DNA of 59,947 bases, filler included, from Dugesia japonica (lineage: Eukaryota): the NCBI GenBank assembly GCA_001938525.1. It is 5 parts of 5 records of this genome, joined end to end, with 100 filler letters (N's around TTAATTAATTAA, not from the genome) between each part and the next. Parts side by side here need not be neighbours in the genome. Positions count along the whole stretch, not along the records: positions 49,434 to 59,947 come from MQRL01596716.1; 4 more parts are not named here. One strand, 5' to 3'. Numbering within the stretch: position 1 is the stretch's first letter; each line of letters opens with the position of its first letter. Made by a program: the position numbers and the translations under genes. The notes under the pieces were generated by a model. That model did not search any database, was not told the origin of the DNA, and saw only the letters and a program-made list of their open reading frames with translations. Positions 5,177 to 59,947 of the stretch are shown piece after piece.

Positions 5177-5199
5177 AATTCGATCGTCTTCTGAGAACT

Positions 5200-10714: not shown

Positions 10715-10720
10715 TATCCA

Positions 10721-30415: not shown

Positions 30416-30613
30416 GTCTAGATGGAGCAATGGTGTATATGGATGGCATAATGATATTCTCAGAAAGACTAAAAGAACATTATATAACTCTGGGTCAGGT
30501 ATTAGATCGGATTCAAACGGCAGGGTTGCGAGTAAATCCAGAAAAATGTCACCTATTACGCAAAGAAGGGAAATTTCTTGGTCACATAATTAATAAAGGA
30601 ATTCGAACAGATC

Positions 30614-32610
30614 AATAGGTAGACAGTGGCACATGGGCACAATTTATTTTGGGAACAATTTTATAAATTACCCCCCCTTCTCTCCCTTGAGCTGCGTTTT
30701 TTTAGACAGATTTTTGTGATCTTTTTTTTCTAAGATTTTTTTAAAAATTTTTTTCATTAGATGAAATTTTTTTTTGATCATAAAAGTGTGTGTATTTTTA
30801 ATTTTTAAATTTTGTGTGTGTTTGGGTTGCTAGGGTGGATTTTAAAAAGTACGTCAAGTTGAGTTTGTGTGTGTGTAAGGTTGGAAAAAACGAGAAGGAG
30901 GAGCAGGAGATCTTGGAGATAATTTTTTTGTGGTTTTGAAGATTTGGTTGTGGTTGGACAAAATTTTGGTCTATATATTGTATAAAAGATTTATGAGTTT
31001 GGATGGATGGTTCGTCCTACAAGGGTAGTGGCACACGGGCACATGCGTATGAGTTATCGTCGGTAGTTTTTATGGAGGCTGTAGGTTGGTATGTAGTTGA
31101 TGAAATTTGTTGGTTGATGGTTTGTTGGAGAGATAATGTGGTGGGGAAGATGTTGGTTTTCGAATGTGCTTTGATTTTTTATTTTAAGGGCTACTTTTGA
31201 TTGGTTTATTTTGAAAGTAGTATAAGTGTGTTAAAAAATTTTTTTCGTGAGGTGGAGGTTGGTATGTGTGGAAAGATAATTAATTATCGGATTTTATAAG
31301 ACTTATTTGAAATTTTTCTGTCAGTGGTTATGACGTCATAATTTTTTGAAATCTTTTTTTTGTTTAAAAAGCTGTATTTTGCTTAAATTGATGAATTTAA
31401 TGAAAGTAATGGTATTTTTGAGTTTTTTTGTTGTCTTTTTGGTTATTTTTTCGGTATTTTGAACTGGGAAGGGTTGTTTTTTTAATATTTTCGAACGGGG
31501 AAGAGAGGAGTCTTGATATTTTTGAAAACCTTTTTGGTAGGAAATTTAAAAAATATTTTTATCGCGAGAAATTTAAAAAATATTTTTGGCAGGAAATTCA
31601 AAAATTTGTTTTTAGTAAGAAATTCAAAAAAAAATATTTTGGTTGGAAATTTTTCATTTCAATGGAGGAAATCTTTTAACTTTAATTAAATTTAATTTAA
31701 TTAATTTAATTTATTTATGTAAGAGATGTGGTAGTCTTGATATTTTGCATGCATAGTCTGTATATTTTGTATAAGATGGGCAGTTTTGATACTTTTTAAG
31801 ATATTATTACATTTTATCGAGCATCCTGGATATTTTTAAGATATTACAATAAATTTATGCATTGTATGGGTAGCCTTGATATTTTGCATGGTATGATCAG
31901 TCTTGAAATAATAAATGGGAAGCCACTATATTTACCTTGGGGAACCTCTATATTTATCATCTCAGTTGCATCTGAGCTGCATACCTATTGTATTTATTTA
32001 AAATATCAATAATAATTCCTAGGCATGCGATTTTTAATGTATGTGTGTTACATCTGAGTTGCATATCTATTGCATTTATTTAAAGAAATCAAAATGGCGG
32101 CTAGATTGAGTTTTAAAAAATCAAATTGGCGGGATTGTTGAGTTTTAAAAACTTATTTTTTGGTGAGAAGTTTATTAAAAATACTCAGAATTGTGATTTT
32201 CAGTGTAACTGTGTTGCATCTAAGTTGCAACTGAGTCACATACCCATTACATTTCATATTATAAAATTATCAGGCACATGATTTTCAGTATATGTGTGTT
32301 GCAGCTCTAATGCTTCTGAGTTGCGTTTATGAAAATATATCTATCAAATATATCTATCTATTGCATGATTCAATAATCAAATAAAAACCTTTCTATACAA
32401 TATGATAAAAACAGAACTTTTTTCATAAAAAAAGACATTAACTAGGTAATTTTCTATAAAACATATTAGTGATGCAATATTTAATAAAAAGTCTGATTAG
32501 TGTTGCAATTTTAAATAACAAATCTCATTAGCGATACCACGTTTAATAAAGTGTCTCATTAGTGTGGCAATCTTTAATAAAAAGTCTAATTAGCGATGCC
32601 ATGTCTAATA
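30614..32610 (+). repeat. Left terminal inverted repeat of the Maverick (inner boundary approximate)
   Basis: Colinear rc match to 35795-37593, e.g. GAAGGAGGAGCAGGAGATCTTGGAGAT / ATCTCCAAGATCTCCTGCTCCTCCTTC and CATTAACTAGGTAATTTT / AAAATTACCTAGTTAATG. Confidence 0.9.
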
Positions 32611-33179
32611 AAACACATATCGGTTGAGAACATTTCTGAGAAAGAAATTATAAAAAGCATGACATTTTTCATAAAATATCATAAATTCATGGAACCTTGC
32701 AAGACATATATACCTAATAAGACTATAAAAATTTCAAAGAAAATAATTTCATGATTGTAAAGGTTTATGAGTCTATGTTTTGCATAGTTACCTTGTATTA
32801 TTTAGATAGCAACAATGTATTTTAAAGATTATGAGTTTAATATTTACATAGGAAAAATGTATTTTAAAGATTATGAGTTTAATATTTATATATTAACCAT
32901 CAAATAAGATGAAACCATGCAAAATGGATGCATGCGTAATGCACAAAAGCATGCACAATACATGCTCGCATCATGTTCACGAGTAATTTAAATAACAAAT
33001 CATATAATTTTAAACAAATTAGATCCAATAATATAAATTAATAATAACCATTCATTTCCTTTAAAAAATATAATGACCAATAAAAACTAACAAATAACGA
33101 CTATGTATGTATCCAGCAAGTATATAAACATTAGCTTTAGTAAAATAGGTCACTTTTACATTTCAAAGTTGAAAACAAA

Positions 33180-35794: not shown

Positions 35795-37593
35795 AGAAAT
35801 CGCAACACTAATGATACTTTTTATTAAAAATGGCAACACTAATGAGACATTTTATTAAAAATTGCATCGATAATGACATGTGTTATTTAAAATTACAACA
35901 TTAATAAGACTATTTATTATTAATTGCAACAATAATGATACTTTTAATTAAATATTGCATCACTTATAAGATTTTATAGAAAATTACCTAGTTAATGTTT
36001 TTTATGAAAAAAGTTATGTTTTTATCATATTGTAAAGAAAAGTTTTTTAAGAGATATATTTTCATAAATGCAACTGAAAGGCATTACAGCTACAACACAT
36101 ATACAATGAAAATCATGTGCCTGGGAAATTTTTATTAATAAATGCAATATGTATGCGACTCAGTTGCAACTCGAATGCAACGCATTTACACTAAAAATTA
36201 CAAGTATAAGTAATTTTAATAAATTTCTCACCAAAAAATAAGTTTTTAAAACTCAACATAGCTGCCATTTTGATTTTTTAAAATAAATACAATAGGTATG
36301 CAGCTCAGATGCAACTCAGATGCTAAATATGGAGGCTCCCCAAGTTAAATATAGTGGCTTCCCATTTAAAATTTCAAGGCTGCACATACCATGCAAAATA
36401 TCAATGCTACCCATACAATGCATAGATTTCTTGTAATAATACCATAAAAATATCAAGACTGTTCGATATCTTGTAATAGTATCTTAAAAAATAGAAAGAC
36501 AGACCATAACAGGCATAAATTTCTTGTAATAATATCTTAAAAAAATATAAAGACTGCTCAATATCATGTAATAATATCTTAAAAATATCAAAACTGCCCA
36601 TCTTATAAAAATATAGAGACTATGCATGCAAAATATCAAGACTACCACATATCTTACATAAATAAATTAATTTACTGAAATTTAATTGTAATAAAAAGAT
36701 TTCTTCTGTTGAAATGAAAATTTTCCAACCAAATATTTTTTTGAATTTTCCACAAAAAATATTTTTTTTAAAATTTCTAGCCAAAAATATTTTTTTAAAA
36801 TTTTCCACCAAAATTTTTTCAAAAATATCAAGACCCCCTCTTTCCCGTTCGAAAATATTAAAAAAAACAACCCTTCACAGTTCAAAATACCGAAAAAATA
36901 ACCAAAAATACTATTACTTTTAATAAATTCATCAATTTAAGCAAAATATAGCTTTTTAACCAAAATAAAGATTTCAAAAAATTATGACGTCAAATAAGTC
37001 TTATAAAATCCGATAATTAATTCTTTTTCGACATATACCAACCTCAACCTCACGAAAAATTTTTTTTAACACATTTATACTACTTAGAAAAATAAACCAA
37101 TCAAATAGTAGCCCTTAAAATAAAAAATCAAAGCACATTCAAAAACCAACATCTTCCCCATCACATTAGCTCTCCAACAAACTATCAACCAACAAATTTC
37201 ATCAACTACATAGACCAAATTTTTATCTAACCACTATCAAATCTTCAAAACCACAAAAAAATTATCTCCAAGATCTCCTGCTCCTCCTTCTCGTTTTTTC
37301 CAACCTTACACACAAAAATTCAACTTGACGTACTTTTTAAAAACCACCCTAGCAACCCAAACACACACAAAATTTAAAATTTAAAAATACACACACACTT
37401 TTATGATCAAAAAAAAATTTCATCCGATCAAAAATTTTTAAAAAAAATTTTAACCAAAAATCTTAGAAAAAAAACGAACACAAAAATCATGTCTAAAAAA
37501 CGCAGCTCAAGTTTTGTGTTTCCGAGCGCCCCTCTCTACACGGAGAAGGTGGTGATTTATAAAATTGTGCCCGTGTGCCACTATCTATCTACT
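35795..37593 (-). repeat. Right terminal inverted repeat of the Maverick (inner boundary approximate)
   Basis: rc of 30614-32610 with substitutions and indels. Confidence 0.9.
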
Positions 37594-38708
37594 CAGATCC
37601 AATCAAAATCGAAGCTATCAAAAATTTTGTGAACCCCAAATGCGTAAAAAACTTGAGAAGCTTCCTCGGAATATACAATTATTACAGAAGATTGATCAAT
37701 AATTATTCAAAGAAATCAAGAGCCATAGAAGAATTTTATGGAAGCAACATCACGAAGCTAATATGGTCAGATGGATGTGATAAAGCTTTCGAAGACATGA
37801 AATCACCTATTTTAGAATTCCCTGATATAAAGAAGACATTTATTTTAGATACTGGCGCTGGTTTCCACGCAATAGGAGCGATTCTATCACAAAATGATGA
37901 CGACAGAGGAGAAGTGATTACTTACGGCTCACATGCAATGACATCACATGATAAGGGCTACTATAACACATGGAAGGAATTACTAGCAATCTACTACTTC
38001 TGCAACCACATTTAACATTATTTATTTGGAAAAAAATTCATAACGAGAACAGATCACAAAGCCATCATATTCATAAAACGACGAACAAACCGATAACACC
38101 TCAATTCCAAACATGGATGAATTACCTTAGCAGCTTAGACATGGAACTAATATATAGACAAGGCGAAAAACACAAACGCAGATATGCTCTCAAGAATGAA
38201 ATGCGTAACATGTAATCAATGTCACAAGCAACATGAAAATCCATAGTGGTAAGACATTTGAATCAAAAAACTTTAAGAATCTGATAGAATCGAATATAGA
38301 AATACAATTTTCAAGTACTTACCATCACAATACAAACGGAATTATAAAGATACAATTCCGCATAATTAGAGACTGCATTAACCCAGCCGCAGAGGAAGAT
38401 AGAAGAAATGATTGAAGTAACATGATACCGGAAATTGAATACATGATGAATGTGACAAGACCAAACACATTTGAGATATCACAAGCAGAAAAAAATATAA
38501 AACTCTTTTTAAAAGTATTACTCTATTATGTATACAAAATAACAAATCTCTCACAACTTACCTAGTTTTAAAGAATTATTTTTATTTGAAAATATTTTCT
38601 ATCACTTGGTTCTATCGCAGCTAAATTGTCACCCACACTATGTTGAAACAAACTATCAACTTGCAAACTAAAAACACCAATTGAATGCAATGCAGTGCCT
38701 CTAGTGGT

Positions 38709-38808
38709 NNNNNNNNNNNNNNNNNNNNNNNNNNNNNNNNNNNNNNNNNNNNTTAATTAATTAANNNNNNNNNNNNNNNNNNNNNNNNNNNNNNNNNNNN
38801 NNNNNNNN
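38709..38808. other. Artificial contig-joining spacer
   Basis: N44-TTAATTAATTAA-N44. Confidence 0.95.
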
Positions 38809-38924: not shown

Positions 38925-39300
38925 TTAACAGTCACGAAACAAGATTATACCTTTTCTATTGACCAGTGCAGATTGTTTATTACATAATTTCTGGTACATC
39001 ATCGAAACTTGAGGACAGTATTTGTCTGTTGTGATAGGTGCATCTAGCTCTAGAAACCAAGATGTATCACACCAACTGTAAACCACCAAATAGTAATCAT
39101 TATATTTTTCGGGTACAAATCAGGTTTTGGCATGTAGCGAAGAGTTTCGTTGGTATTTAGACATTTAATCGTCAAAATAGTGCATTCATTTTCTGAAAGC
39201 GTGTTAAATGCGTATTTTATGTTTTGAGCAATTTCCGGTGTATTTTTTCCATTTTCCAAGCTTCAAAGAAAATACATCAAAATTACGTTTTGCAAAATTG
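38925..39300 (-). mobile_element. Internally deleted mariner transposase fragment (cecropia-like)
   Basis: GKNTPEIAQNI (HTH) fused to PKPDLYPKNIMITIWW..GVIH...ITTDKYC...ALVNRKGII. Confidence 0.85.
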
Positions 39301-42910: not shown

Positions 42911-43125
42911 TATGAGTATGTTTTAAACGAGTTGAAATTTTTGTGTAGTTGGTGATCGTTTTTCTTGAAATCTTTTTTGAAAAAAATTTAAATTGAAATG
43001 AAGGATTAAATGACAATTAAGTAAATGTTTTAAATTATGAAATTAAATTTTAATAAGTAAACAGAAAATTTATTTTAAAATCTGATTAAAAAATCAAATG
43101 ACTAATAAGTAATTATTTTAAATTC
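42911..43125 (+). repeat. Truncated 5' LTR
   Basis: Direct repeat of 45585-45800 (AGTATGTTTTAA...GATCGTTTTTCTTGAAATC...AAATCAAATGACTAAT). Confidence 0.85.
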
Positions 43126-45584
43126 TAGAAATTAACAAAGATCATAGATTGACTGCGATTATTCAGAATAATAAGAATGTATTTATGCGGATAAATATGA
43201 CATTGGATGCCCACACTTAACGAAGCATCTAATGATCACTAAAGGAGGACCAATCAACTTAAAACCGTATCGCCAACCAATGAATCTAGAGGAAAAAATT
43301 GAAGAGACCATCAAGCATCTAAATAATAATGGTATCATCCGGAAGTTTTATTTACAATGGAATACGCCATCAATCTGTGTTTGAAAAATGGGAAAAAAGG
43401 ATATGCGATTATGTTTAGACTTTAGACAGCTCAATGCAATAACAGATAGACAAGATTTTCATATGCCAAATGTAGACGAAATGCTAGATGTTTTGGAAGG
43501 TGCGCAGTATTTTAGCTCAATAGACTTGGGAAATACATACTACCAAGTGGAACTCAGTGAAGATTCTCAAGAAAAGACAGCTTTTTCGACCAAACAAGGG
43601 TAATTTTGTTTCAATCGAATGCCTTTTGGAATTGCAGCAGCATCAGGCACGTTCGTGGAAACGATGAATAAATTAATCGAAAAAATAAAAGGAGCGATGG
43701 TTTATTTAGATGATATTCTCATTTTTACCGAAACAAAGGAGCAATTCTTTGAAATAATCAATAAAGTATTAACAGAAATTAAGAAGGCTGGTCTTAGAGT
43801 TAATACGGAGAAATTTCAATTCATGCGAAAGAAGATCAATTTCTTGGGACACGTTATCAGTGAGGAAGATGTCAAAACAGATCCAACTAAAATAGAAGCA
43901 ATTAAGAACTTTGGTAAACCAAACTGCGTTAAGAAGATGAGAAGCTTTTTAGGAATTTTCAATTACTACCGAAAGTTTATTAAAGATTATTCAAAGAAAG
44001 CTAGGTTACTGGAACAGCTGTGTAGGGGCCAAGTAACAAGAAAATTGAATGGACGAATGAATTAGAAAACGTTTTACATGGAATGAAAGAACCACTAACG
44101 ATGTCTTCAATATTATGTTTTCCAGATATAAATAGAAAATTTACTTTGGACACGGATGCGAGTTTCGATACGATTGGAGCAGTACTATCTCAAAAGGACC
44201 ACAATAGGCAAGAAAGAGTAATTGCATATGAGTCACACGCAATAACGAGCCATGAGAAAGGATATTATACTACGCGGAAAGAATTACTCGCAATTTACTA
44301 CTTTTTTATTCATTTCAAGCATTACTTATATGGGAAGAGATTTATCCTCAGAACTGACCATCACTTTTATGCAAAATTCCAAGAAGCTGATTACATCACA
44401 GTTCCAAACCTGTATTAATTATTTGAGCAGTTAAGATATAAAATTGGAATATAGAAAAAGATCGTTTCATAGAAATGATGATATGTTGTCAAAGAATGAA
44501 TGCAGTACATGTACACAATGTCTAATGTCACATGAGGATCCCAAAAGTGGAAAATTAAAAAGAAGAATATTAAATACAGTAGATATTCAAGAAAATCAAG
44601 GCAATTTTGGAGAAAATGATGAAGGAACATGGATACTTGATTATAAAATAAAAGAAGTTATAATGAGGATACACCATCTTTTGTGTCATACTGGAGCAGA
44701 AAAAGTAGCGGCGTATATGAAGGATAAATAAAACACGAAACATTTGTGGAGCAAAGTACAAGAGGTTGAGCAAAGTTATATAACATGCCAGAAAGCTAAA
44801 GTGTTGACAACAAAAACGAAGGAAGAAACAAAAAAGACGCAGCCAGCCGAAATGTTTGAGTTGTTTTTTATAGATGTGTGTGAACCACTGCCGGAGACAA
44901 GAGGTCTGAAAAAATATGTTCACAGTATAATATACCAATGCAGTAAGTATGTAGCCATGATAGCAATGACAAAACAAGATGAAGATACCATACGGAAAGC
45001 AATATTGGAGAAGTGGATATTGAAGTTCGGGTGTCCGAGAGAAATTCGAGTTGGTTGTGGAAAAGCTTTTAAGTCTGAATCAATGAAAGATTTTGCAGAT
45101 GATCATGGCATTACCCTCGGGTTTTTGAGTCTATATCATCATAACACAAATGGACAAATCAAGAGACAGTTTAGAACTATGTGGGATCTGATTAATGCAA
45201 CACTTAAAGAAAGGAAAACCTCAGATTGGGTGGATGTATTGCCAGAGATAGAATTTACCTTAAACGCTACAAAACAGAAAACTATCGGGAAAAGCCCTGC
45301 TGAAATCGTCTTTGGAAGAAAATAAGCAGAGGAAAAAGTTATGAAACCAATACTCAAAGAGTGCACAAAGAACAAGAGGAAGAAATATTAACCAAAAGAC
45401 AATTTGAGATTGGTGATGAGGTCTTAGTGAAAGCTGAAACAAGAAACAAGAACCAAGCTCGTTATAAAAGACCCTATAAGATCAAGAGAAAGATTCATGA
45501 CAGACGTTACATCCTGAAAGATACAAACGGAAAAAGTCTTGAAAGAAACATAGAGAAAATCAAAAAATTTCTTAAAAAGAGAGA

Positions 45585-45995
45585 TGTCAGTATGTTTTAA
45601 GCAAGTTGAAAATTTTTGTGTGGTTGATGATCGTTTTTCTTGAAATCTTTTTTGAAAAAATTTAGATTTAAATGAAAATCTAAATGACTCATAATTAATT
45701 GTTTTAAATTTTGAAATTAAATTTTAATAAGTAAACAGAAAATTTATTTTAAAAATCTTTTAAAAAAAATCAAATGACTAATTAGTAATTGTTTTAATTC
45801 TGAAATTAAATTTTAACAAATAGATTGAAAATTTATTTTAAAAATCTTAATAAAAAATCAAATGACTTTAAATCGATTTTAAAAAAATCTTAAGAAACGA
45901 TCACCAATTTAAAACAGAAATTTAATTTGTTTNAAAACTCAATTAGTGTTGTGTTGGGTTTTTAGGATTTGGTGTTTTTATTTTGTATCGACACA
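45585..45995 (+). repeat. 3' LTR (~410 bp; right end approximate)
   Basis: Follows purine tract AAAAAGAGAGA; starts TGTCAG, candidate end TCGACACA. Confidence 0.75.
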
Positions 45996-46291
45996 TTTTC
46001 TGATATTACTTTTAATAATTAATAATTTCATCAACTTATCTAGCGGCATACATAAAAACCACAAGTATTTATGTCACCTCTGTGACATGCCCCTCGTTTC
46101 AACGGGTTCAGCTCAACTTCGAGGTATCGCGTCTTACACATTAGATATCTGAATCCCGACAGCAATAATCTCACATGCTCAGTTAAACCATACTGTTAAA
46201 ATTCTACTTCAACAAATAAAATCTCAAGAAAGTTAAAATACTCATCCATACTCATTAATATTTATTTGATTATGTACACTGCAATTTGTAG

Positions 46292-47285
46292 TTAGGCATT
46301 CAGATCAACGGTCTGCTCTATGGCTTTGGTTGATTCCTCAGGAGATTGGTAATTTAACCACAATGTTCGTAGAGTATGGAACAGTGTGGCCTCACGATCC
46401 ACATAAATCTTGACAATGTCGGCCATAAGGCGGTTGGCCTGTTGAAGTGCCAACTTCTTTTCCTTTAACTGTGCGAATTTCGAGGACGATTGATTCAATT
46501 GCCCCTTGAGTTGCAGGATTTCGTTGCGCAAATTGCATCTCTCCGACTTCCATCGTTTCTGTGCTGCTATTATCTCCCGTTTCGACCCCTTTTCGTCATT
46601 TGATTTGTTCACTATAAATGCAAATATTATACAGTTAAAATAGGTTTCATTCCTATGTAAACAATATTTATCAACGAAATAATAATGATAAGGTGACCAG
46701 CAAAAATAAAATTTATTCTGTCTTCACAAAAAAAATCTAATAAATAATATTTAAATGAAATCACTTAGCCCTAACACTGCCTCTGCAGGTATAAAATTTT
46801 CAACTACTAATGTGACCTACATATCACANNNNNNNNNNNNNNNNNNNNNNNNNNNNNNNNNNNNNNNNNNNNNNNNNNNNNNNNNNNNNNNNNNNNNNNN
46901 NNNNNNNNNNNNNCTCGGAAGCGACCCCAGTGTCGTCCATTAACTGTTTTAGTATATTCTCCTCCACCTTTTCCATCAACGCTCGGGACTCTATCATCTG
47001 TTTTGTGGCCATTGCCATGTCGCGCGCAGATGCCTGAATATCCAGCCTTCGATGGGCCAGTTGAATCTCTAACTTCTCATTCTCCTCGCTTGTGACTTTC
47101 AATTTACGTCTCAATTCCAAATTCCGTTTAACGAGCTCCTGTTGTCCGGCTCTGATTTCACGCTTATCTTTATCGTGAGCTTCTTTCTGTTCGTCCAACA
47201 GCTTCATGGCATTTTTCCTGAAATTCTCGGTGTCACCATCGTTCGTTAGCACCAATGGAATGTGTGGTTTAAAGTAGGCGGTCAT
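46292..47285 (-). CDS. Orphan coiled-coil protein gene, probably two coding exons (47285 to within the N gap; 46611-46292)
   Basis: Two open, locally GC-richer heptad-rich frames; tttatag acceptor at 46612; TATATAAG about 130 bp upstream of the ATG; AATAAA just after the stop. Confidence 0.6.
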
Positions 47286-47417
47286 TTTTTATGAAATACA
47301 AAATTAACTGTTTTTCTAATAACAACATTAAATGTAATTTAAAGCCAAAATAAAAAAAAAATTTAAATAATGACACGTTTCTTTGGCCTACGGCCTATCA
47401 ATTCTTCTTCCACCACT

Positions 47418-47425
47418 TATATAGC
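47418..47425 (-). promoter_or_regulatory. TATA box of the coiled-coil gene
   Basis: AGCTATATAAG on the minus strand; the same 11-mer occurs at 56589 on plus. Confidence 0.5.
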
Positions 47426-48294
47426 TAGAAACCAGAGAAGATGCCCACTAATGCATCCATCTTTCCTAGTTCCTACTACTTCGAAGTTCTACCAAGAACT
47501 CCCTATCAGCTTATTTCAGAAGAAATGCGTCACAACAGTCTGATCATAAAACCATCACTGATAATTATATTGAATGAATATCCTATATTTACTTTCTATT
47601 AAAAATTCTTTGATAAAAAAAACTAAAAGATAACAGTTTTCAACTCTGATGCATAATATTTTCTTTAAATCAATGAATTACACTATGAGAGTTTATAGAA
47701 AATTCATGAATAAAATTATGTAACCAATTTCAAGTAAAAATAATAATAAACATTCAATAATGAAATTTAATCCACGAAAACAAAATCATATTTTCCAATA
47801 ATCAAGCTCCCAAAGCCGAACTCATTGTCATCCTCAACGATGATCATTCATCCACATCTTATTCTTATAAATGTTTACTAGTGCATTCTCGAACCCCCGA
47901 CAACTCGGCTCATTTTCTCACGATATTGCTACTATTAACCCTGATTTTCCATCTTTAAACTCCTTCGATTTAGAATTCATTTGATCTCGATTTGACTAAT
48001 GATTTTCATTACCATACNNNNNNNNNNNNNNNNNNNNNNNNNNNNNNNNNNNNNNNNNNNNNNNNNNNNNNNNNNNNNNNNNNNNNNNNNNNNNNNNNTA
48101 TTGCAATGATTCTACAACTTTTCCTTGTCTACCATTCTATTTTTTATCACAATACTGCTTGATTAATCTGGTTTGCCCGCTTAATGATCTACGCCATAAT
48201 CACTCGCTTGATTTTGTTTGTCGCTTACCGATTTCTTCAAAAATAAATCTGTTAATGTTATTTCGCATTTCTCTGATTCTCTCGATAATACTCA

Positions 48295-48482
48295 TTACGT
48301 TTTGTTTGGCATTTTATTGTTTCTCTCAATAATATTTATTTCGTTTTGTTTGGCATTTTTCGTTTCTCTCAATAATACTTGTCTCATGTTGTTTGGCATT
48401 TTATTGTTTTCTCAATAATATTTCTTTTGTTTTGTTTGGCATTTTTCGTTTCTCTCGATAATACTGGTTTCATTTTGTTTGG
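48295..48482. repeat. ~40-bp tandem repeat, about 4.5 copies
   Basis: TTTGTTTGGCATTTT(ATT/TC)GTTTCTCTC(A/G)ATAATA units. Confidence 0.85.
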
Positions 48483-49333
48483 GAGCTCGATCATCTGATT
48501 CTTTGCAAGGCACACTCAAAGCATGTAATTTAAAATAGATGACAAAATATTAGGAATAAATTAAAATTTATTTCTCTGATTTTTCAAGTTTATCTTCTTC
48601 CGAATTTGATTCTCCAACTGATAGCAAAATAGTAGCAATGATACAAAGATAAGTGATAATATTTTGTTGTCGCTTGTTTCGAGTAAATTTAACTGTATAA
48701 CAAAACTTTAATCGCAGCAAAACTTGGTGAAAAATAATTATCTCTTTTCCCTCCAGTTTTCTGGTTTTATTACAAGCACTAACAAGAAAATTTGGCTCTC
48801 GATTAGCCAGCCAATCCTCTCCATGTTACTCGTTATCCGGGCTTCTGATTGGGTGTCACCTTCCTCTCATTTGATGCGCACCTCTTTATTACGAAGTGTC
48901 TCATGAATTTCGACACCCCAACTTTTAATTGACTTCCTCGTTATCAGTCACCTCGTGTGACCTTTGATAGTTACCGAGGAAAAGTCCTTATCTAGCAGGA
49001 AATGATTCAGCAGTTTTGCTGATTATTTTCGCTTTATTTTTCATCAGCTAGACAAGGAATGATGACTGGACCAAATTAATTAATAATAATAATTAATATC
49101 AAACGCTAATAATAATTTATAATAACGAAATAGGGTCGTAGAGACCCCTTTAATAAATTATTATATTATTGTATTTTATTTTTATTATTCTACTAATTTT
49201 TGCCTTTCAGTACATATATTTATCATTTTCGTACCACCGAAATTGGGTTTTCTACGCCCGATTTTCATTTTTCGGTATTTTTCCCAAAATACGCCATAAT
49301 AATTATAATAATAATCATCACATAATAATAATG

Positions 49334-49433
49334 NNNNNNNNNNNNNNNNNNNNNNNNNNNNNNNNNNNNNNNNNNNNTTAATTAATTAANNNNNNNNNNN
49401 NNNNNNNNNNNNNNNNNNNNNNNNNNNNNNNNN
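49334..49433. other. Artificial contig-joining spacer
   Basis: N44-TTAATTAATTAA-N44. Confidence 0.95.
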
Positions 49434-49739
49434 CTAACAATAACGATAAGGACAATCATAACTAAGGAGCCTAATTTTTATTAGTAATCATAATGATTAT
49501 AATAATAGCAATAATAATGATAATATTAGTGATGATATTGAATACAATGTTAGTAGTATAAGTGCTTCCAACAGGTATAATAAAGGCTAATAAAACTAAA
49601 TGGGAGCGATAATATTAAGTGAAGATTCTGAATGAAAATGTGCTATAATATAATATGAATAATGAAAGTGAATACCAGACTAGAGTTTATAATATTTGGT
49701 TTCTAAAAACTTATTGAAAGTGGTAATACTAAATGATAA

Positions 49740-50770
49740 ATATTATATAGAAGTCGTAAAAGAATAATTGTAATAATAATAACATGGGCCGTAGTCAAAT
49801 TCTATATCCTAAAGTTTTCATTTTAATAAAATTGAAAATTTTATTATATTTATCATTAATAAAAAAAATCGTTTAACTAAATTTTAATGACACAATTCAT
49901 ACAAATAATAACAGAATAATAATAAATAAAAATATTTCTTACTGCTAAAATAAATAAAAGANTACTACGGGAGCACAAGAATTTGATGAATCGTCGATAG
50001 ATAGATTGAATAAATAAGATCTTGATTTGGAGCTGCTTTGAGAATCTTCTGTGAGAATGGTATGAGATTTCGGAGATAGTGGCTGAAAATTGGATCGAAC
50101 TGTTAAGAATTGCAACGATTTATCGTATATCAAAAACTTAGAAAATTGGAATTAAAATGATATTCTGGAGAGCGAGTATTTATAGTGAATTTCTCGTTGA
50201 TAATTATCACGAAATCTATTGAATTGACAACCGCTTCCTGTCTGGATTTGAGATTCTTCTCGAGTAAGTGTGAAGATTTCTTAATTTGTTTACTGATTAC
50301 TTCTAGATAATTGAAGCCGCAATTTGATGGACTTGAGCTGGCGAATTCCAATTGTCAAAAGATTGACAAATTTGGGAGTTTGGTAATATGATGAAAATAA
50401 TTTCTTTAAAATTTTATTATGGTAATTTCCAGCAAATCTTGAAATTGAAATTTTCTTGTAAGTACAATTTTTTCTGAATTTTGGTTGATTTTCACTTGAG
50501 TTTTTAGATCGCAATCTGAGTTTGATGGGTAATATCAAGTCAAATGACAGGATTTATTAGGTTAAGTTTTGTCTATTTTTGAGCCCTTTTTATAGTAAAT
50601 TTTATTAAGATTTATTTTCCATTGGCTGTTTTTGGTCGAAAATTCATACAATTTTCTCACAATTTGCTACACATTCTGGAAAAATAGGTAGTATTTTTTG
50701 TATAACTTAAATATTTGTGGATTAATTTATTTTCTTTTATAGGATATATTTGGTTTAATTCGCTCTCAGA
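49740..50770 (-). promoter_or_regulatory. Repeated promoter/leader-exon cassette, copy A
   Basis: Minus-strand CCAAT (50621), CTATAAAAAGGG (50584-50595), CTATAAATACTC (50174-50185) and donor GCA|GTAAG (49942); colinear with copy B. Confidence 0.65.
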
Positions 50771-51133
50771 CGGATCCCTCAGACACTCCAAATCTATTCC
50801 AACAATTGAATGACAGTTACTTTTTTATTTGTTTGAATTTTTCAATAAAGTTTTTTATTATTTTGATTTTGTTTTTGTTTTGAACTTGTAGTTTTATTAT
50901 TTATTCTGTTTTATTGGGTTTTTTGATAAACAAATTGGTTGGGTTTAGTTCCAACAGATTACTTCTGGGATTGGTATAATTTGTAACTAATTTCATAACT
51001 CATTTTCTCTGTGTATATGTTTTCGTATTTTATTTGGTTACTGACTACTTTTACTGTTTTTGTATTTTTTGGAATATTTTATTTTTCTGATTTTTTTATA
51101 ATTTACAACTTTTTACACATTCGCTCCACTTTC

Positions 51134-52493
51134 CTACACCACATTCCTTATCTCGATGAATATGCTACCATCTTTTACGAAGTTTGATAGCACCTTTTTG
51201 ATCGATATAAACGTTGGGGATCCTGATCCTAAGTACAATAGGAGATCTCGCATGGTTTGCCTTTATATGTTTCGCTATACCCTTCTGACAATCTGTCATA
51301 TCCTATGGTAATTCTCATACTAAATTTGTTTGACATGGGTCATTTTAACTGGCATTCATATTTTCCTTTCCTGATTATAAAGAAAATACTTAAATGGCTT
51401 CCTTTTCCTAATCCATCTCCATTGGGGTAAATTCTTAAGGACGCGAGATTAACTTCTTTAAATAAATAAAATTGTGAGCTCGTATAATCTGGGCTGGTAT
51501 AACGTCCATATTTTTATTATAATATTGGTGCGTGTTGGTTGCTTCCCATAATTGGCGACGAGCTTCTAATAACGCCGATTCTGTTGAAACTAATAATGAA
51601 TTTAAGGTACCACAATGTTGTTCCCATAATGCCTCTGTTGTAATAATTTCGTATACTGCTTTTCGTATTGCTTTTTTAATTCCAGCATTTGTGGTTTGGT
51701 ATCCTGCATTCGATATCGTTCGACGTTTATTTCTTGTCCTNNNNNNNNNNNNNNNNNNNNNNNNNNNNNNNNNNNNNNNNNNNNNNNNNNNNNNNNNNNN
51801 NNNNNNNNNNNNNNNNNNNNNNNNNNNNNNNNNNNNNNNNNNNNNNNNNNNNNNNNNNNNNNNNNNNNNNNNNNNNNNNNNNNNNNNNNNNNNNNNNNNN
51901 NNNNNNNNNNNNNNNNNNNNNNNNNNNNNNNNNNNNNNNNNNNNNNNNNNNNNNNNNNTATTACTATTTTTATTGGTTCTGAAGTTTGCGATTTTATCTT
52001 CAATCCTTCGTTGTTATTATTCAAGAGTATTCGTTGTTTCTGAAATTTTCGATTAACTAAGGTTCATGGAGGAAATGCTGATCTACCTGCTATCCAAGTA
52101 AGAAAACATCTACCTGTTGTGCCCAATATTTTGTGGCACGACTAGATTCTNNNTTTAAATGTTTCATTCGTTCTTCTATACAATGATGACAAAGTGTTAT
52201 CCAACATTCGTGTGATATTTTCTAGAAGTTTATTATCACATATTGTGCAAGCGCCGTTTTCTTATCTGATTTCGGGATAGTTTGATAATAATTCTAAGTC
52301 TTTTTGATGTTAATTTTTTCTTGTAGAGCTTGGCATACCCTGTACCAGTTTGTCGTAGTCGCCATTTGTCCGTCGAATGGCTATCCGCACTTCAGCTCCA
52401 AAAGTTCGGCTGGGATGGAGCGGGAAAAGATGCTGGTTGGCGAAGTTCTGCGGAGCATTCTCGTCTATATCTAAACGTATCAGATTAAATCAT
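51134..52493 (-). pseudogene. TRAF-like gene (RING - coiled coil - MATH/TRAF-C), no visible coding introns, disrupted
   Basis: RING-like CTICDNKL...HEC...LCHHC; coiled coil MLELKKQYEKQYTKLLQ; MATH SSQFY...[33 protein letters not shown]...GSGSPTFIS...FVKDGSIFIEI; stops and frameshifts; one N gap. Confidence 0.88.
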
Positions 52494-52969
52494 GCTTAAT
52501 CTGGAACTCATTATTCATTAATGAAATATTTGGTGACGATATATTTTGGTGTTGTTGTGGAGCTGATTTATAGTGAACCTATAAATAAGTTATAGTGATA
52601 GTAACAGTATCAGTGCTGCAATCAAGAAATGAATCAATAACACTAAATTTTCTGAATATGCATCATTCTATAAAGTCATCAGTAGGGGTAATTACATCTT
52701 GATTCTACGAATATTAGCAACGTTTCGGTAAAGAATACTAATTAAATGGTAAATTTAATAACTTATAAAAATTGATAGTTTTATGAGTAATATTGATAGA
52801 ATATTACAAGGATAATAAATAATTAACGACAATTATAGTAACTAATAATAACACTAACGACCCTAAAATTCAACTATTTATCATAATGGTAATAGGGATA
52901 AGTGATGATGGTATTCTGGAATAATTATTTAATAATAAGCATTGAGATTATCAAGGATATTAACGATAG

Positions 52970-54060
52970 TTATTATATAGAAGTCGTAATAGAATAATAG
53001 TAGTAATAATAACATGGGTCCAATTCTATATCCTATGATTTTACCATTTTCATTTTAATAAATTGAAATTTTTATTCTATTTTTTATATTTATCATTAAT
53101 CAATAAGTAAAGAAAAAATCATTTTACTAAATTTTTAATGATACAAATCATAATAATTAATAACAAGTAATAATAACAAATAAAAATATTTCTTACTGCT
53201 AAATAAATAAAGAATCACTACGGGTGCACAGGAATTGGTCGATTGACGAGAGATGGATTGAATTGATGGAACTGCTATAGAATTAGAAACGATTGATGAG
53301 AGTGATAGAATTTTCTTGAGGGCTTTTGTGATTGATTTTCACGACTGAGAGATAGTCGAATTTATTCCCAAAAGATATTTCGTAAAATTGTCTATTTGCT
53401 TGCTGTTTGTTACTCTGGAAAAGCGAGTATTTATAGAAAATTTGCCGTCGATAATTCTCGTGGTTGTCTATTGAACTGACAGCCGCTTCTTGTCCTGATC
53501 TGCTGTTCTTCTCGAGTAATTATGTTGAATTCCTAAAAAATTTGATCTGATTTCTTTTAGATAATGAAACCGCAATTTGATGGCCTTCATTTAGAGAATT
53601 CCAACTGTCAAACGATTGTCAATTTTGGGAATCAACGTAGATGGTTAAGATAATTTCTTTAAAAATTTAATGTGTTTTAGAAAGAAATCTAAATCTTAAT
53701 TATTGCTCTGATTGCTCAGAATGAATTGGAAATTTCTTCGCAAGTGAGTTTTTTCTTGAAATTGAAATTGTTTTTGAATATTTGTAGATTTGCTATGATT
53801 AAGTAGATAATAAAAAACGCGGATTGTTGTCTCAAGCTAAACGAGATTCATAAGGGTAAGTTTTGTCTATTTTTTAGGCCCTTTTATAGTAATTTTTTTT
53901 CAAATCGATTTTTNATTGGTTGTTTTTGGTCAAAATTCAGATTGATTTTCGTGTAAATCACTGATTTTCCCAGGTAATTTTATTTATTTATTAATTATTT
54001 TCTCAATTTTGTAATTAATTTTCTTTTTATTTTCAGAATATGTTTGTTTAATCGATTTTA
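52970..54060 (-). promoter_or_regulatory. Repeated promoter/leader-exon cassette, copy B, upstream of the TRAF-like gene
   Basis: Same motif order as copy A (CCAAT 53915, TATA ~53889 and ~53436, donor 53196); candidate acceptor TTCCAG at 52501 lies 7 nt before the ATG at 52493. Confidence 0.65.
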
Positions 54061-54224
54061 GTTGGATTTACCAAGAAATCGTGAATATTTTTAAGGATCG
54101 GTGAGAGATTTTTTCCATTCGTTTTTTTCATTTCTTAATTAACTATTTTAATTTGTCAATTAATTCTGTTAAAATTTCCATTATTTTACTTAGATTTTTA
54201 GATAGAGGTGTTGGGTTGTGTCCC

Positions 54225-54242
54225 AAAAATAATAACAATAAC

Positions 54243-54298
<56 letters not shown>

Positions 54299-54348
54299 NN
54301 NNNNNNNNNNNNNNNNNNNNNNNNNNNNNNNNNNNNNNNNNNNNNNNN

Positions 54349-54412
<64 letters not shown>
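54225..54412. repeat. (AAT)n microsatellite; one of many (also ~1350-1570, 23290-23535, 29470-29590, 30240-30315, 41480-41670)
   Basis: Pure AAT/ATT runs, usually interrupted by N gaps. Confidence 0.95.
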
Positions 54413-54415
<3 letters not shown>

Positions 54416-54959
54416 TAGAGATCATGGGTGACATGGCTAAAAAATTATATAACTCAAAATCCACAACGAGCATTTGTTGCAAATGTCCTGTAGTTCCGTT
54501 GAGGGCAGCCACGGTGACTTTTACCTAGGGTTAGCAAAATCGGTGTTTCTTGTATTAATACATAATATTTCGGCTATACCTTCTTCAGGGACTATTGCTC
54601 TAGTTCCTGAAGAAAGCATAGCAGAAATATTGAACTTTCTATGAAAATCGAAAAACATCATTTTGATCTTTTCAAATGAAAATAAATTTTACTTATTGAA
54701 ATTTGTTTTTCAAAATATTTGAAATATAATGAAATCAGTAATAATTGTAATAATAATAAATAATAATGACCATGATAACTACGATGATGATATTGATAAA
54801 TATTAAAAGTAACAATAGAAATACTAATTGTAATCATGGCAACTATAGCAATAATAAAAAATATAATATCAATAATAAAAAGGATAATATTAACCGTAGG
54901 TGAAATCAATATAGTACAATTTTAAGTACAATAGAAACTATTAAGGTACGGTTATCAAC

Positions 54960-55870
54960 GTTATGAAATCGATTTTCACGACTGAAAGTTGTCGACTATT
55001 TCTTCAAATATGGTGGCAATAATTTGAGACACCAAGAATTAGAAATTTTGATCCTCTGGAGAGTATTTATAGTGGAATATTTTTGGTGTTTGGAGCTATT
55101 AGTTACCAAATTGACACTGTTTTCTGGTAGATTTTGGAAATTTCTTCGAGGAGTCCTTACGTTTTCTAACAATGGCAATTTGAATTGATTATTCAGATTT
55201 TGACATCGATTTCAAACCAATTATTGGTTTTAATAATTATCGATTGAGGAAATAAGTTGAAATGATGACATTTTAAATTTGATATGGGAATGTTTAGAAA
55301 TTCCAACTGTTAACTATAAATCGGATTGATTGGTTTTGTTTTTGAATACGGAGTAAGGATTTTTAAAAAAAATTTATTTTCTAGTTATTGATTTTTATAT
55401 TCTTTTTCAGCACCTGATATTACTGAATGGAATGGTTCGGGATACTCGATTGAAAATAGAGATTCTTCTAAACAATTTTCTAATAAATTTAGCTTATCGG
55501 ATTTAAGTTTTAATTAGGGTATTCGCAAAGTTAAGAGTAATTTTCTAATTTTATCGGACCCTTTTATATTGATTTGTTCCTCTAAGTTCGTTTTTCATTA
55601 GCTGTTCTTGACCATAATCCAATATCATTTCTCACAATTTGTTCTGGATTTTTTGGGAAAAGGTAACTTTTCTATGAAATTTTATTGNNNNNNNNNNNNN
55701 NNNNNNNNNNNNNNNNNNNNNNNNNNNNNNNNNNNNNTAATTTGTTTTTATAGAATATATTTTATTAAATTCGTTCCTTGGTGGATTTATCAAAATAATT
55801 CAAGGACATTCCGACAATTTGATGACATTTTATTTTTATTATTTTTTGATTGTTAAATAAAGATTTTTAT
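54960..55870 (-). promoter_or_regulatory. Divergent third copy (C) of the cassette
   Basis: CTGGAGAGTATTTATAG (55056), AATTCCAACTGT (55299), GGACCCTTTTATA (55556), TTTCTCACAATTTG and the same plus-strand mini-intron. Confidence 0.55.
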
Positions 55871-56469
55871 TATTTGGGTTTTGTTTNTTTTCATTTTGTA
55901 AGTTCATCATTTATTTTGCATTTTGTAGCTTTCTGTTTTGTAATGAACTGGTATAGTTTCATCCCAATAAAAAGAATAATAACCCAATTTAAACAAGAAC
56001 TAATGTTGCAACCAAAGTCGGCCCCGAAAAATGACTAATAACATAAAACATAATCAAAATATCGGAGTAATAATAATACATCCAAAACTTTTTAATGAAC
56101 AAATAATGGTAACAATTCCACAGAATGAACGGCGAAATAATTAAAATAATTACCCAAAAATTATGAATAAACAAGAGCAATTAAATCCCAAAACTGTAAA
56201 ATAAATACAAAGAAAACGCATAATTTGTTGCCAAAAATAGAAATAATTGCAATTCAACCAGCAATTATTTTTTTAAAACACCGAGATAACAAATAATAAT
56301 TATTGTCACACAGAAAAAATAATTACTGCAACTTATTTTTCTAATCAGAAAAATAAGCAACGAAGAAATAATTATTATATGAAGAATAAATAATTAGTAC
56401 CAGTCAAAAATCAAACAATTATTGTCAACTGAATTCGAAATGACAGAGAAAGAAAAATCGTGGGTGGCA

Positions 56470-56600
56470 CAACAAACCAATTAGATTTACATAGCTAATA
56501 AGAAAGGACCAATAGAAATGGATAGAAATGAAATAAGATAAGTTGACCAATCAGAACAGAGATAGGGGAGAGGTAAAAAAATCGCAGCAGCTATATAAGC
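56470..56600 (+). promoter_or_regulatory. Compact Pol II promoter: three CCAAT boxes plus TATA
   Basis: CCAAT near 56478, 56508 and 56547; TATATAAG near 56593; GAG|GTAACC donor near 56813. Confidence 0.55.
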
Positions 56601-57146
56601 AACAGCATTTTAGAAAGAACTAAAGTTTTATCATTAAGTTTTGATACTATTGTCAGTGAAGCAGCTATAAATTCCTATTCATTAGAGATACTAATACGTT
56701 TCATCGGTTCACAGAGGATACAGAAAAACTTCCCCCAATCAATAACAAAATTACAAGTTACGGGCTTACTTATCTTATATTTTGACACTGGTGGATTATG
56801 CTCCACCCACGAGGTAACCTTTTATTATTTAATATTAATATTTATATTGTTAATGTTGTTGGAGTAATGGAATATAAAATAATTTAGTGATAAATTTTTA
56901 TCTTATCAAAAAGAAATAAACTAATTTAAATTACGGTTCAATTCTTGATCAATCTCTTCCTATTAGTTTGGTACTGGATCCTTAATAGACTCTGGTTACT
57001 AACATAATTGATTAACGTTAAAAAATTAAAGGTTTAAATTTAATCTAAATCATTATTAAAGTAAATGATATTCTATTTCAATATGAAGCTAAGTAATACT
57101 TATAAGATATGTGGAAAAAATAAATGCAGTATATGCAGTTTTTCAG

Positions 57147-57380
57147 TTGCGCCAATTATGCAGACGTTTACTTAGAGCGTCGAATGAAAAGGATGAACAT
57201 TTACTAGGGCTTGAGAAACGCTACGACATGTTACGAAGAAAAAATAAAGAGATCTCCGATGTGAGTCATGACCTTAAGTTGTTAAAAGTAACTAGAGACC
57301 GCTTGAATTTGGCTATGAAAGCTGCAACAGAGCAGAGGAAGAAACTGCTAAAATCCTGCAAAAAACTTTGCCCAATATGA
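57147..57380 (+). CDS. Terminal exon of a small orphan coiled-coil protein
   Basis: TTTTTCAG acceptor then LRQLCRRLL...LEKRYDMLRRKNKEI...LKVTRDRLNLAMK; lies downstream of the promoter. Confidence 0.45.
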   Translation: MRQLCRRLLRASNEKDEHLLGLEKRYDMLRRKNKEISDVSHDLKLLKVTRDRLNLAMKAATEQRKKLLKSCKKLCPI

Positions 57381-58268
57381 GGCAAAGGTTCCATGGATCC
57401 CATACGACGTAAACACCGACAATCAATCCGTCTTATTTTTACATCCTCCAACCTCACCGGAACCTATCCTTTCTTGGAATATGGTAGATATTGATAACTG
57501 ACTTGTTGAGTACTATTGGCAAGACCAAGTAGTAATCATAGCATCTTTAGTAAAGTAAATATTTTGAGGCTTAGTGTTATTTTAATTCTTACATTAGTGC
57601 CAGTTAATAGGCCTTAATTAATGTAAAAATGTCTAGTGTTTGAAAATTTAAAGTTGTCCTCAAATAAGTAATTGGATGAAAATTAATAGTCACAAAGTAA
57701 AGAGCAAATCGATTAAGACAATAAGTTTAAAATCAAATTAAGAAATATAGAAAAGCAAAATTTTATCCGCTGATCATTTTGACTATAAATATCGAGATAT
57801 AACTTAGAAAGTAAATTACTATCGTTAGCTCATAATTAATAAGAATAAAAANATAAGCCTAAGATAGATCACTAAGGATATCAATCCATAATGAGAATAA
57901 AATCACAGTATATATAGTTAATCGGTCGTATCATCTACTTGTCTCGCCACATATTAGCACTTAACAGATACCACTCATAACCGCATATCATACCCCTAAG
58001 AACCCAAACCAAAATAATGCGATTTGCGCGGTTTTATGGATGAAGGTCACCGATTCCTTAAGAGTAGCGTGGGAAACTACTACAAAATCTTTTGTTGGAG
58101 TTCCATAAACTCAACATAGCTTGACTATACGTTTATAAGATCCCANNNNNNNNNNNNNNNNNNNNNNNNNNNNNNNNNNNNNNNNNNNNNNNNNNNNNNN
58201 NNNNNNNNNNNNNNNNNNNNNNNNNNNNNNNNNNNNNNNNNNNNNNNNNNNNNNNNNNNNNNNNNNNN

Positions 58269-58515
58269 TTAAGTTGGTGCATAATTAGCGACGAATTTTT
58301 GGCATGTGTTTATTTAACAAAAAAGATAAAAATATGCCCAAACAATTTTTTAATAAATCAATCTGAAGCGTATTAACCATCTACCTCAATAGCTTCTTTC
58401 CACTTGTTTTACACACAGTCGATCCCATGAGAGAAGAAGTTACTAATTTTGTAGGCAATTCAAGATTTGACATTGACCACCAACTCATTCAAATCGTCGT
58501 AAACAGTAATTTTTT
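58269..58515 (-). mobile_element. 3' end of a cecropia-type mariner with its TIR
   Basis: VYDDLNELVVNVKS*IA...FFSHGID...KWKEAIEVDG is a mariner C-terminus; TTAAGTTGGTGCATAA resembles the Hsmar1-type TIR start TTAGGTTGGTGCAAAA. Confidence 0.8.
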
Positions 58516-59947
58516 ACGGCTCAAGGAATATCCGTTGATCTCCCATAATGTCAAGTGAGTCGAGATTTTTGCAGTTAATAAGTTTGATCAGTCGCGATTC
58601 GATTTTGTGAAATCTGTCAAGTAGGATTTATTTTTAGACTGCGACTGTTTGTCATATAAATTTTAAAAACAGGGTTGAGAAGAAATGAATTGTCCAATTA
58701 AGGTTTCCTTGCTCTCTATTGGATTTATAATTTTCTTTGTAATTTAATTACTGATTTTTCTGTATTGAACTTAGTTTTTGATCGTTAGATTTTTTAGATA
58801 TGTTTTGTTTATTTTGGATATTATAACTTGTTTCAGACATATTTCCCGGGTCTTTATATACCATTTCTCAGTGTTAATCGATCTTCAATTCGTAAATTTA
58901 CATGAAATATCGGGATTTTTTTGATTATATGGTTTCGGATTTTTTATGAATTGGCTTNTAAGTATTTTATTTTATTAATTATTTGTTGAATTATTCGAAT
59001 TATTTTCTTTTATTTTCAGATTATGATTCGATAATTTCAATTATTTTTCTCATTCCTATATATTTCTATATTTTTAATTAATAATACATAGATTTATAAA
59101 ATAATTATTTATTTTTCTACAATTTTCTGATTGATAAAAGATAATGAACATGGTTGGGATCCGTCCACACAGCAATAATAACAATAAAATTATAGTTAAG
59201 CATAGAATTATTAAATTATTAAATTTCTTAAAGAATGTCACCATATGTGGTAACAAAACTTATATCAATAATGTAAATAAATGAGCTCATATTAACTGTT
59301 AGGACCTTTGTTATTATTATCTTAGCGCCAATTTATTGATTTCTGATCCAAGTAATTTATTTATTAATTTAGATAGTTTTTCCGATAAATTTGAGGGTAA
59401 TATTTGCTTAATAATTTCTAGTAAACATATTTGAATAACGATTGTAAACGTTTTATTAAATTCATTTGAAGAAGTGTTCATAAAGATATTTTGGTGAAGG
59501 CTTCACTTTTATTTTATCTGAATTTTTGCATTTTATTATTTATGAATATTCGAGTGTATGTACATCTTTTTAAATTAATATTACACTTACGTTTTGTGTT
59601 ATTTTAAAATAAACCAGTCTTGTTTTGCGCTCTAGTGTGAATACATTAGATACACTAGGAGAACATTTTAATCATTTGGCCGGCGATATCGTATTACTTT
59701 TCTGTATGTCAAATAAATTTAAATAAGAACTCTCAAGCTCGGAGCTACCAATTAAAATTACTGAATTACATTTTTGTTATTATAAATATAAAATTATTAT
59801 CTTGATTATTTATAACTATATTTCATTTACATTAATAAAATAATACTTGCAAGTATATTATCATATAAATCAGAAAAAATATTACTTTTAGATTAAATTC
59901 TCACTAAGAATCTAACATTTATTATTTTTATTTTTATTATTATTATT

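Follow-up and report, generated by a model that had tools for sequence, protein, structure and literature searches.

TRAF gene remnant in the window

The window, i.e., the whole stretch of 59,947 nucleotides of Dugesia japonica DNA that was analyzed, consists of joined parts; positions 49,434 to 59,947 represent record MQRL01596716.1, and the lower positions belong to other parts, which are not necessarily its neighbors in the genome. On the minus strand of this record we identified the dead copy of a TRAF gene, comprising a MATH domain and half of a RING finger (Table 1). The MATH domain was recognized by the Pfam profile TRAF-mep_MATH (PF21355) in one of the six minus-strand frames scanned, with an E value of 5.6e-7 and a score of 30.4 bits against a cut-off of 27.4, and its best matches in the PDB were TRAF3 (E value of 3.5e-10 over about 70 residues), followed by TRAF2; the C-terminal TRAF-type MATH domain that characterizes the TRAF family is, on both counts, present. 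In a frameshift-aware alignment to P0155, one of the close relatives described below, 63 of 118 residues were identical over positions 51498 to 51143; the match reaches the C-terminal end and is interrupted by one frame break (near 51235) and one in-frame stop (51340). The first strand of the domain is unrecognizable, the Pfam matches beginning at model positions 6 and 20. The terminal stop of the frame occupies positions 51134 to 51136, the coordinate at which the original prediction let the feature begin, and is followed on the coding strand by an A-rich tract.

Upstream of the MATH domain, the first half of a RING finger retains the spacing C-x2-C ... C-x4-C-x2-C; its second half is absent, and no Pfam match to a RING was obtained in any of three frames. 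A profile built from six sequences gave it a score of 37.0, which was reached by none of 300 shuffles and none of 290 other window segments, and a profile built from four sequences gave a score of 35.8, which 4 of 300 shuffles but again none of the 290 segments attained. The open frame between the two domains was rendered in a single-sequence model as one long helix (residues 18 to 78; mean pLDDT of 84, pTM of 0.39) and likely represents the coiled-coil (TRAF-N) part, with which the model is compatible, if weakly. The alignment of this middle region to the relatives gave scores that were reached by 250 of 300 and 197 of 300 shuffles, with an hhalign probability of 0.1, and the zf-TRAF zinc fingers had no match above shuffles in a region of which 218 nt are an N gap. 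Of the RING, coiled-coil, and MATH segments originally described, the MATH domain is clear and the RING is supported for its first half, but the coiled coil was not recovered by homology and appears as a helix in the model.

Table 1. Features of the TRAF remnant, the repeat modules, and the transposon remnants, in positions along the window (columns: feature, position, strand, basis or remark)
MATH (TRAF-C) remnant	51134..51500	minus	Pfam, PDB match, alignment to P0155, tree
Open frame, 101 codons, in a different frame from the MATH core	51438..51740	minus	long helix in a single-sequence model
Assembly gap, 218 N, inside the gene remnant	51741..51958		
RING finger, first half	52162..52249	minus	profile score; frame break near 52219
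N-terminal segment of the frame (probable), start unfixed	52250..52493	minus	open frame 52313-52489; X5 depth
Module C1, noncoding repeat	49482..50960	minus	TATA-type 12-mer at 50174; 64.8% to C2
Module C2, noncoding repeat upstream of the TRAF remnant	52736..54225	minus	TATA-type 12-mer at 53425
Module C3, diverged third copy	~54700..55970	minus	12-mer at 55061; no TRAF behind
Gypsy pol remnant	3260-4866	minus	Pfam
Gypsy pol remnants	5409-6395, 37563-38012, 43385-45322	plus	Pfam
Further RT remnants	10682-11170, 30418-30615		Pfam
Mariner-type transposase piece	39053-39262		Pfam, confirmed

The distance from the first RING cysteine to the end of the MATH domain is 1107 nt, compared with 378 codons in P0153 and 405 in P0155, and is thus too short to accommodate introns, provided that the size of the gap is correct. 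This bears out the absence of introns noted originally, although 218 nt of that distance belong to the N gap, which had gone unmentioned. The description of the copy as broken by stops and frameshifts was likewise accurate: counting the stop at 51340 and the frame breaks already given near 51235 and for the RING, the remnant is broken at four or more separate places. The further claim that conserved tryptophan positions read as TGA or TAG holds for one site (51340), with no second site and no TAG in the aligned parts.

Relatives of the remnant

A search of 1.84 billion representatives and its follow-up yielded four close relatives, P0155, P0153/P0034, and P0019, which are RING-zinc finger-MATH TRAFs complete in their architecture and lie on short ENA and JGI contigs. 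P0155, P0153, and P0019 are intact (421 to 452 amino acids) and carry cysteine-rich zinc fingers; P0034 is a fragment of 361 amino acids. All four have the MATH signature and the C-terminal end in common with the window copy (51 to 54% identity over 70 to 78 aligned residues of the single-frame MATH), but the window copy, different from the three intact proteins, is broken and has no recognizable zinc fingers. Two metagenome scans and one viral scan for the genomic context of the intact relatives gave no match; a locus on a phage contig (L001), obtained in a second viral scan, was discarded as a chance match, its listed genes having no TRAF-like frame at the match.

The MATH core motif is also common to the window copy and human TRAF3 and TRAF2, around the conserved IYxNGDG stretch, where the shared residues belong to the receptor-binding surface. 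Human TRAF3 and TRAF2 are intron-containing, single-copy host genes and, as the short PDB match indicates, far more distant from the window copy.

A tree was built from the best 60 of the qualifying matches (61 rows, 83 columns), leaving out P0034 (a near-copy of P0153) and proteins of 620 amino acids or more. In it, the window MATH grouped with P0155, P0153, and P0019 with support of 99/99 on a stem of 0.72, apart from ordinary TRAFs; the window sequence sits on a long branch, and the bootstrap values had not stabilized. The nearest named relative, TRAF-4 of Dendrocoelum lacteum, is an ordinary TRAF, joined by a weak branch (62/92). Such a neighbor would suit a pseudogene of an expanded and clustered host TRAF subfamily that lies in transposon-rich regions and undergoes birth-and-death turnover through local and segmental duplication, an origin that we hold to be quite possible, if distinctly short of even.

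Copy number and expression

Contigs and reads from four runs of four studies were placed on positions 49540 to 54200 at a likeness of at least 80%. Since summed contig depth is no copy number, depth per contig was used. At position 51387, in the MATH core, run X5 contributed 77 contigs with a summed depth of 232,999, that is, about 3,000 per contig, compared with a locus-specific depth of about 12 to 15 (a near-identical piece of 185 nt had 15.2, and the copy's own letter at 51340 had 11.6), so that the core is about 200-fold deeper per contig than the locus-specific pieces. At the same position, run X1 contributed 34 contigs with a depth of 4,128, or about 121 per contig, which is 13- to 23-fold deeper than three near-identical contigs (0 to 3 other letters; depth of 5.2 to 9.5). 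The two per-contig ratios disagree about tenfold; X1 is the more fragmented run and may not represent plain genomic DNA.

Along the TRAF body, the X5 bins reached 96,729, 196,709, and 443,739 over 51256 to 51723 and 84,703 at 51880 to 52035, the highest contig depth of the stretch falling on the 101-codon open frame. Upstream of the RING, depth was 33,415 in the bin 52348 to 52503 versus about 200 to 290 in 52660 to 52971, and together with an open frame this makes it probable that the segment following the RING half is the N-terminal part of the TRAF frame, an assignment made without support from homology. Over the flanking modules described below, the bins ranged from 148 to 4,511, and even the lowest value, 148, exceeds the single-copy level of about 12 to 15, so that the whole 4.7-kb stretch is above it in X5. 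Relative to the TRAF core, the depth of the modules in X5 is lower by a factor of about 100, and in X1 it is close to the single-copy level. The deepest contigs match the window only in patches, and, given the shallow modules as well, the abundant family need not share the context of the window copy. Relatives at least 80% alike are multi-copy in both X5 and X1 and not single-copy genes in a nonrepetitive context, the counter-case against which the original prediction had been set.

The in-frame stop at 51340 is a minority letter, accounting for 11.6 of a depth of 1,916.5 in X5, for none of 151.3 in X1, and for none of nine RNA reads in X22. Moreover, the relatives differ from the window copy by indels near 52213, 52119, and 51237, where the window copy shifts frame. 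Since the relatives differ at the stop itself, recoding is unnecessary. We consider it highly improbable that an intact gene only appears broken through poor draft assembly or an alternative reading of stop codons: the 33 runs of five or more N in the window, the several letters missing from both contig sets, and the absence of the stop from every X1 contig speak for an artifact, but X5 carries the stop-bearing letter at single-copy depth and the breaks occur at several separate places.

One X1 contig with a depth of 112 covers 51092 to 51344 with three other letters (about 99% alike) and keeps the same terminal stop and 42 nt beyond it. Close relatives are thus stand-alone frames and not parts of a polyprotein; ending as stand-alone genes, they fit a host gene cluster, as do the oligo-dT RNA relatives, which differ from the window copy at the stop in nine of nine reads.

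Of 284 reads from X22, an oligo-dT RNA run, a single one was at least 99% alike, 10 were 95 to 99%, 79 were 90 to 95%, and 194 were below 90%; 273 were partial fits. None of 26 reads from X21 was at least 99% alike. Diverged relatives are expressed at a low level, and expression of the window copy was not shown: the locus has neither an intact frame, given its stop and frame breaks, nor an evident transcript of its own. As a protein, this copy accordingly cannot exert the modulation of host cell death or immunity that was originally suggested for such cargo, the frame being broken and a single one of the X22 reads being nearly identical to it. No RNA joint was found among the joint rows covered, 15 of a total of 32. 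Poly-T loose ends at 51057 to 51097 in X21 were rejected as a polyadenylation site, as the region is T rich and such rows are mostly false.

Flanking modules

As originally described, two cassettes flank the remnant; these modules, C1 and C2, are direct copies, 64.8% alike over 1493 nt (49482 to 50868 and 52736 to 54161), and are accompanied by a third copy, C3, whose likeness, from a three-way alignment, is 54.6% with C1 and 47.2% with C2, with BLAST pieces at 55532 to 55630 and 55740 to 55967. A protein-coding nature of the modules was rejected, since the substitutions between C1 and C2 do not follow a codon period (p 0.75), a length divisible by three is found in only 3 of 32 indels, and no Pfam match was obtained in the three minus frames across C2. 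A TATA-type 12-mer occurs three times on the minus strand of the window, once per module. The variable sites of C1 are represented by 12 to 22 distinct contigs in X5 versus 1 to 2 in X1. Judging from these sequence features, C1 to C3 look like duplicated promoter or leader modules, and C2, which points toward the TRAF frame from about 0.9 kb upstream, would be a candidate for its promoter and 5' leader; no RNA bridging C2 and the frame was seen in the runs placed on 49540 to 54200. A reading of the modules as the LTR pair of one insertion was likewise discarded, because there are three copies, 47 to 65% alike, and the MATH-end relative is about 99% alike.

Tandem promoter-like modules would fit a gene array, and under an origin in a host cluster, they would be duplicated cluster promoters, the very deep contigs representing a related transposon-borne copy that captured a member of the subfamily. 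Against this, there is one TRAF only among the three modules in 60 kb.

Between an AAT array and C3, a self-complementary segment of about 130 bp (54535 to 54665; arms 71% alike) is possibly a small inverted-repeat element.

Setting of the remnant and the giant-element proposal

Transposon remains fill the window like a graveyard: gypsy pol is represented by at least three further remnants, and RT by another two. Its G+C content is about 25%, and AAT microsatellites are abundant. The Pfam scan covered 229 of 322 stop-free stretches of 45 amino acids or more, filtered for complexity and G+C.

Several other elements were observed in the window. Within 2617 to 6395, two gypsy pol remnants stand back to back in opposite orientation and meet at about 5200 to 5400. 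An inverted repeat (30686 to 32613 and 35819 to 37511) has arms of about 1.7 to 1.9 kb with 76 to 89% identity, internal tandem subrepeats of 31 bp and 26 to 28 bp, and a 3.2-kb spacer without a Pfam match, and in its arrangement resembles a foldback or TIR element of large size. Two G+C-richer open frames on the minus strand, of 143 and 125 codons (46295 to 46723 and 46914 to 47288), are separated by an N gap; they are coiled-coil-like, with a weak CALCOCO1-like Pfam match and low-recognition Atlas matches only. Tandem arrays at 9667 to 10326, 48261 to 48482, and 45667 to 45867 have periods of about 124, 43, and 89 bp, respectively. By eye, the minus strand of 58370 to 58520 is similar to the C-terminal end of a mariner transposase, a reading that received no Pfam confirmation. 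The pattern of 44 N, 12 bases, and 44 N at 49334 to 49433, 11531 to 11630, 30316 to 30415, and 38709 to 38808 is filler at the joints between parts.

The proposal that the TRAF copy sits inside a giant mobile element found no counterpart in the window, since the cassettes are no LTR pair, there is no other bracketing repeat, and neither a co-oriented pol nor a marker domain was found near the copy in the flanks scanned. In particular, besides the modules there is no long direct repeat of the element type around the locus, and no LTR pair encloses an interior of up to 25 kb, the three modules being 1.6 to 3.3 kb apart; the window ends 7.5 kb upstream of the TRAF gene, and the end of an element may lie beyond. 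The nearest gypsy pol (43385 to 45322), about 5.8 kb distant in window coordinates, is truncated and runs on the other strand. The truncated plus-strand element to which these coordinates belong (42915 to 45809; RT, RNase H, and integrase) is bounded by direct repeats of about 220 bp with 88% identity, at 42915 to 43135 and 45589 to 45809. On the minus strand, a gypsy pol is first reached at a distance of about 46 kb in window coordinates, and no co-oriented, linked gag-env-PR-dUTPase-RT-RH-IN polyprotein occurs in the window. BIR, ankyrin, BCL2, SUMO, env, and dUTPase had no Pfam match in the six read-through frames of 45900 to 49400 or in the three minus frames of 49400 to 51100, 52500 to 54200, and 56000 to 58900, and no BIR, ankyrin, BCL2-like, or SUMO-like cargo was found among the 229 stop-free stretches scanned.

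We regard it as improbable that the copy was cargo of another mobile unit (a non-autonomous LTR derivative, a Helitron, or a pack-type DNA transposon) or a flank-amplified retrocopy. Such an origin would suit the depth of the whole 4.7-kb stretch above single copy in X5, the lack of linked coding capacity for retrotransposition, and the A-rich tract after the stop; no terminal inverted repeats bracketing the TRAF remnant were found, however, the modules are near single-copy in X1, and a TRAF carrier other than Burro is absent from the literature searched. As for retrocopy features, the remnant has the A-rich tract and no room for introns, but no intron-bearing parent is known.

Comparison with published planarian elements and genes

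The statements below come from portions of the cited articles. Burro1/GYPSM1 is a giant Gypsy element of Dugesiidae, "present in thousands of copies," whose ORF1 of 4,873 amino acids includes AIR1 RING-type, Smc (coiled-coil), MATH_TRAF_C, BIR, ankyrin, and BCL2-like motifs (PMC6431247, through which Jurka 2007 and Grohme 2018 are cited). The same source reports a Burro-like element of Dugesia tigrina with the MATH domain in a separate upstream accessory ORF as well as Burro fragments that are decaying, with stops and frameshifts, in D. japonica, and it proposes possible interference of Burro with host apoptosis and ubiquitination (PMC6431247). Novelty is accordingly not supported, the TRAF/MATH cargo, the accessory ORF, the D. 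japonica fragments, and the apoptosis idea all being published in that article.

Burro1/GYPSM1 resembles the window copy in its intron-free TRAF/MATH, in a high copy number, as far as contig depth indicates one, and in the listed order of RING-type, coiled-coil, and MATH motifs, and the stand-alone MATH ORF of D. tigrina and the decayed fragments of D. japonica are similar to it as well (portions of PMC6431247). However, the Burro MATH runs on within the polyprotein, whereas the window MATH ends at its own stop, outside any polyprotein; this fits the accessory-ORF form, without a shown link to an element. Unlike Burro, the window copy has no adjoining LTR pair, gag, env, BIR, ankyrin, BCL2, dUTPase, or co-oriented pol, and the likeness is one by description only. 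Three BURRO1 primers had no match within 5 mismatches in the window, which says little, and no longer fused relatives were found among 3,724 candidates of 792 to 2,260 amino acids, a weak result, as the Burro polyprotein is beyond that range.

As regards host genes, Schmidtea mediterranea has 121 MATH domains in 99 transcripts (PMC6109357). Two host TRAFs are required for cell survival, and 121 MATH/TRAF transcripts await sorting into true TRAFs (PMC7586133); neither "transpos" nor "Burro" occurs in its main text. Many traf mRNAs are degraded into SMEDWI-3 piRNAs (PMC6824462). In the part of the piRNA-target table of its supplement that covers 30 of the 64 occurrences of the term, 20 of 29 traf rows fall into four narrow gene-ID ranges, which would suggest clusters, in keeping with a host origin of the window copy, if the IDs follow position (PMC6824462). 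The available parts of PMC8532177, PMC11410931, PMC13238120, and PMC11663942 provided background only.

The planarian TRAF/MATH family is like the window copy in combining a RING with a TRAF-type MATH whose best human match is TRAF3, and it has many paralogues, expressed members, and SMEDWI-3 piRNA targets (portions of PMC6109357, PMC7586133, and PMC6824462). It differs in that the window copy is dead and its zinc fingers are unrecognizable, and the near-identical core copies to which the X5 depth points would far outnumber the annotated family in those sources. This last point weighs against a host cluster: about 200 copies with exact 31-mers in the MATH core, judged by X5 depth, would exceed the whole, diverged family as given in the part of PMC6109357 consulted. 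In the literature searched, PMC6431247 alone links TRAF to Burro, and a transposon origin of the TRAF expansion is stated nowhere in that literature, although the primary Burro paper and its supplements may say so.

Origin and possible role

We slightly favor the interpretation of the remnant as TRAF cargo, now decayed, of a transposon of the Burro/GYPSM1 kind or of a deleted derivative thereof. This is because of the high per-contig depth, the published MATH cargo of Burro, the absence of introns, the transposon graveyard, and the long-stemmed clade; it is weakened by the lack of boundaries, co-oriented pol, and Burro marker domains in the scanned flanks, by the tenfold disagreement between the two runs, by the patchy matches of the deepest contigs, by the absence of longer fused relatives among the candidates scanned, and by the zinc fingers that the closest proteins in the databases, all complete TRAFs, have in common with host genes. 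Of the originally proposed transposon-borne TRAF, the TRAF remnant, too compact for introns, and its multi-copy relatives are upheld, whereas the giant element, the novelty, and the modulation of the host by this copy are not supported.

TRAFs trimerize, bind receptor motifs, and ubiquitinate partners or act as decoys. If the TRAF is indeed cargo of the Burro kind, an intron-free, stand-alone frame with RING, helical stalk, and MATH would have spread with a high-copy mobile element, the carrier being Burro-like; C2 would provide the TATA promoter and leader of this frame, and C1 and C3 would be old paralogous modules lying within the element or block rather than at its ends. Intact relatives could act as TRAFs, trimerizing through the stalk, binding receptor or adaptor motifs through the MATH domain, and ubiquitinating or decoying through the RING, which could favor the survival of cells that carry the element. 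The window copy makes no protein, and its sole plausible activity would be as a source or target of piRNAs.

It is possible to hypothesize, although we think it rather unlikely, that separately promoted TRAF genes, each made of a TATA module and a RING-stalk-MATH frame, travel as accessory transcription units of a giant retroelement of planarians and of elements derived from it. A large share of the reported TRAF expansion would then consist of such copies and not of host gene duplicates, and the status of traf mRNAs as favored piRNA targets in neoblasts would be explained as well.

Being a dead fragment, and with TRAF cargo of giant retroelements already published for planarians, the window copy is in itself unsurprising. 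The question that it raises is what share of the planarian TRAF expansion is transposon borne: should a subfamily with hundreds of near-identical copies prove to be transposon cargo, then family counts, the specificity of RNA interference, and the piRNA result would need to be read again.
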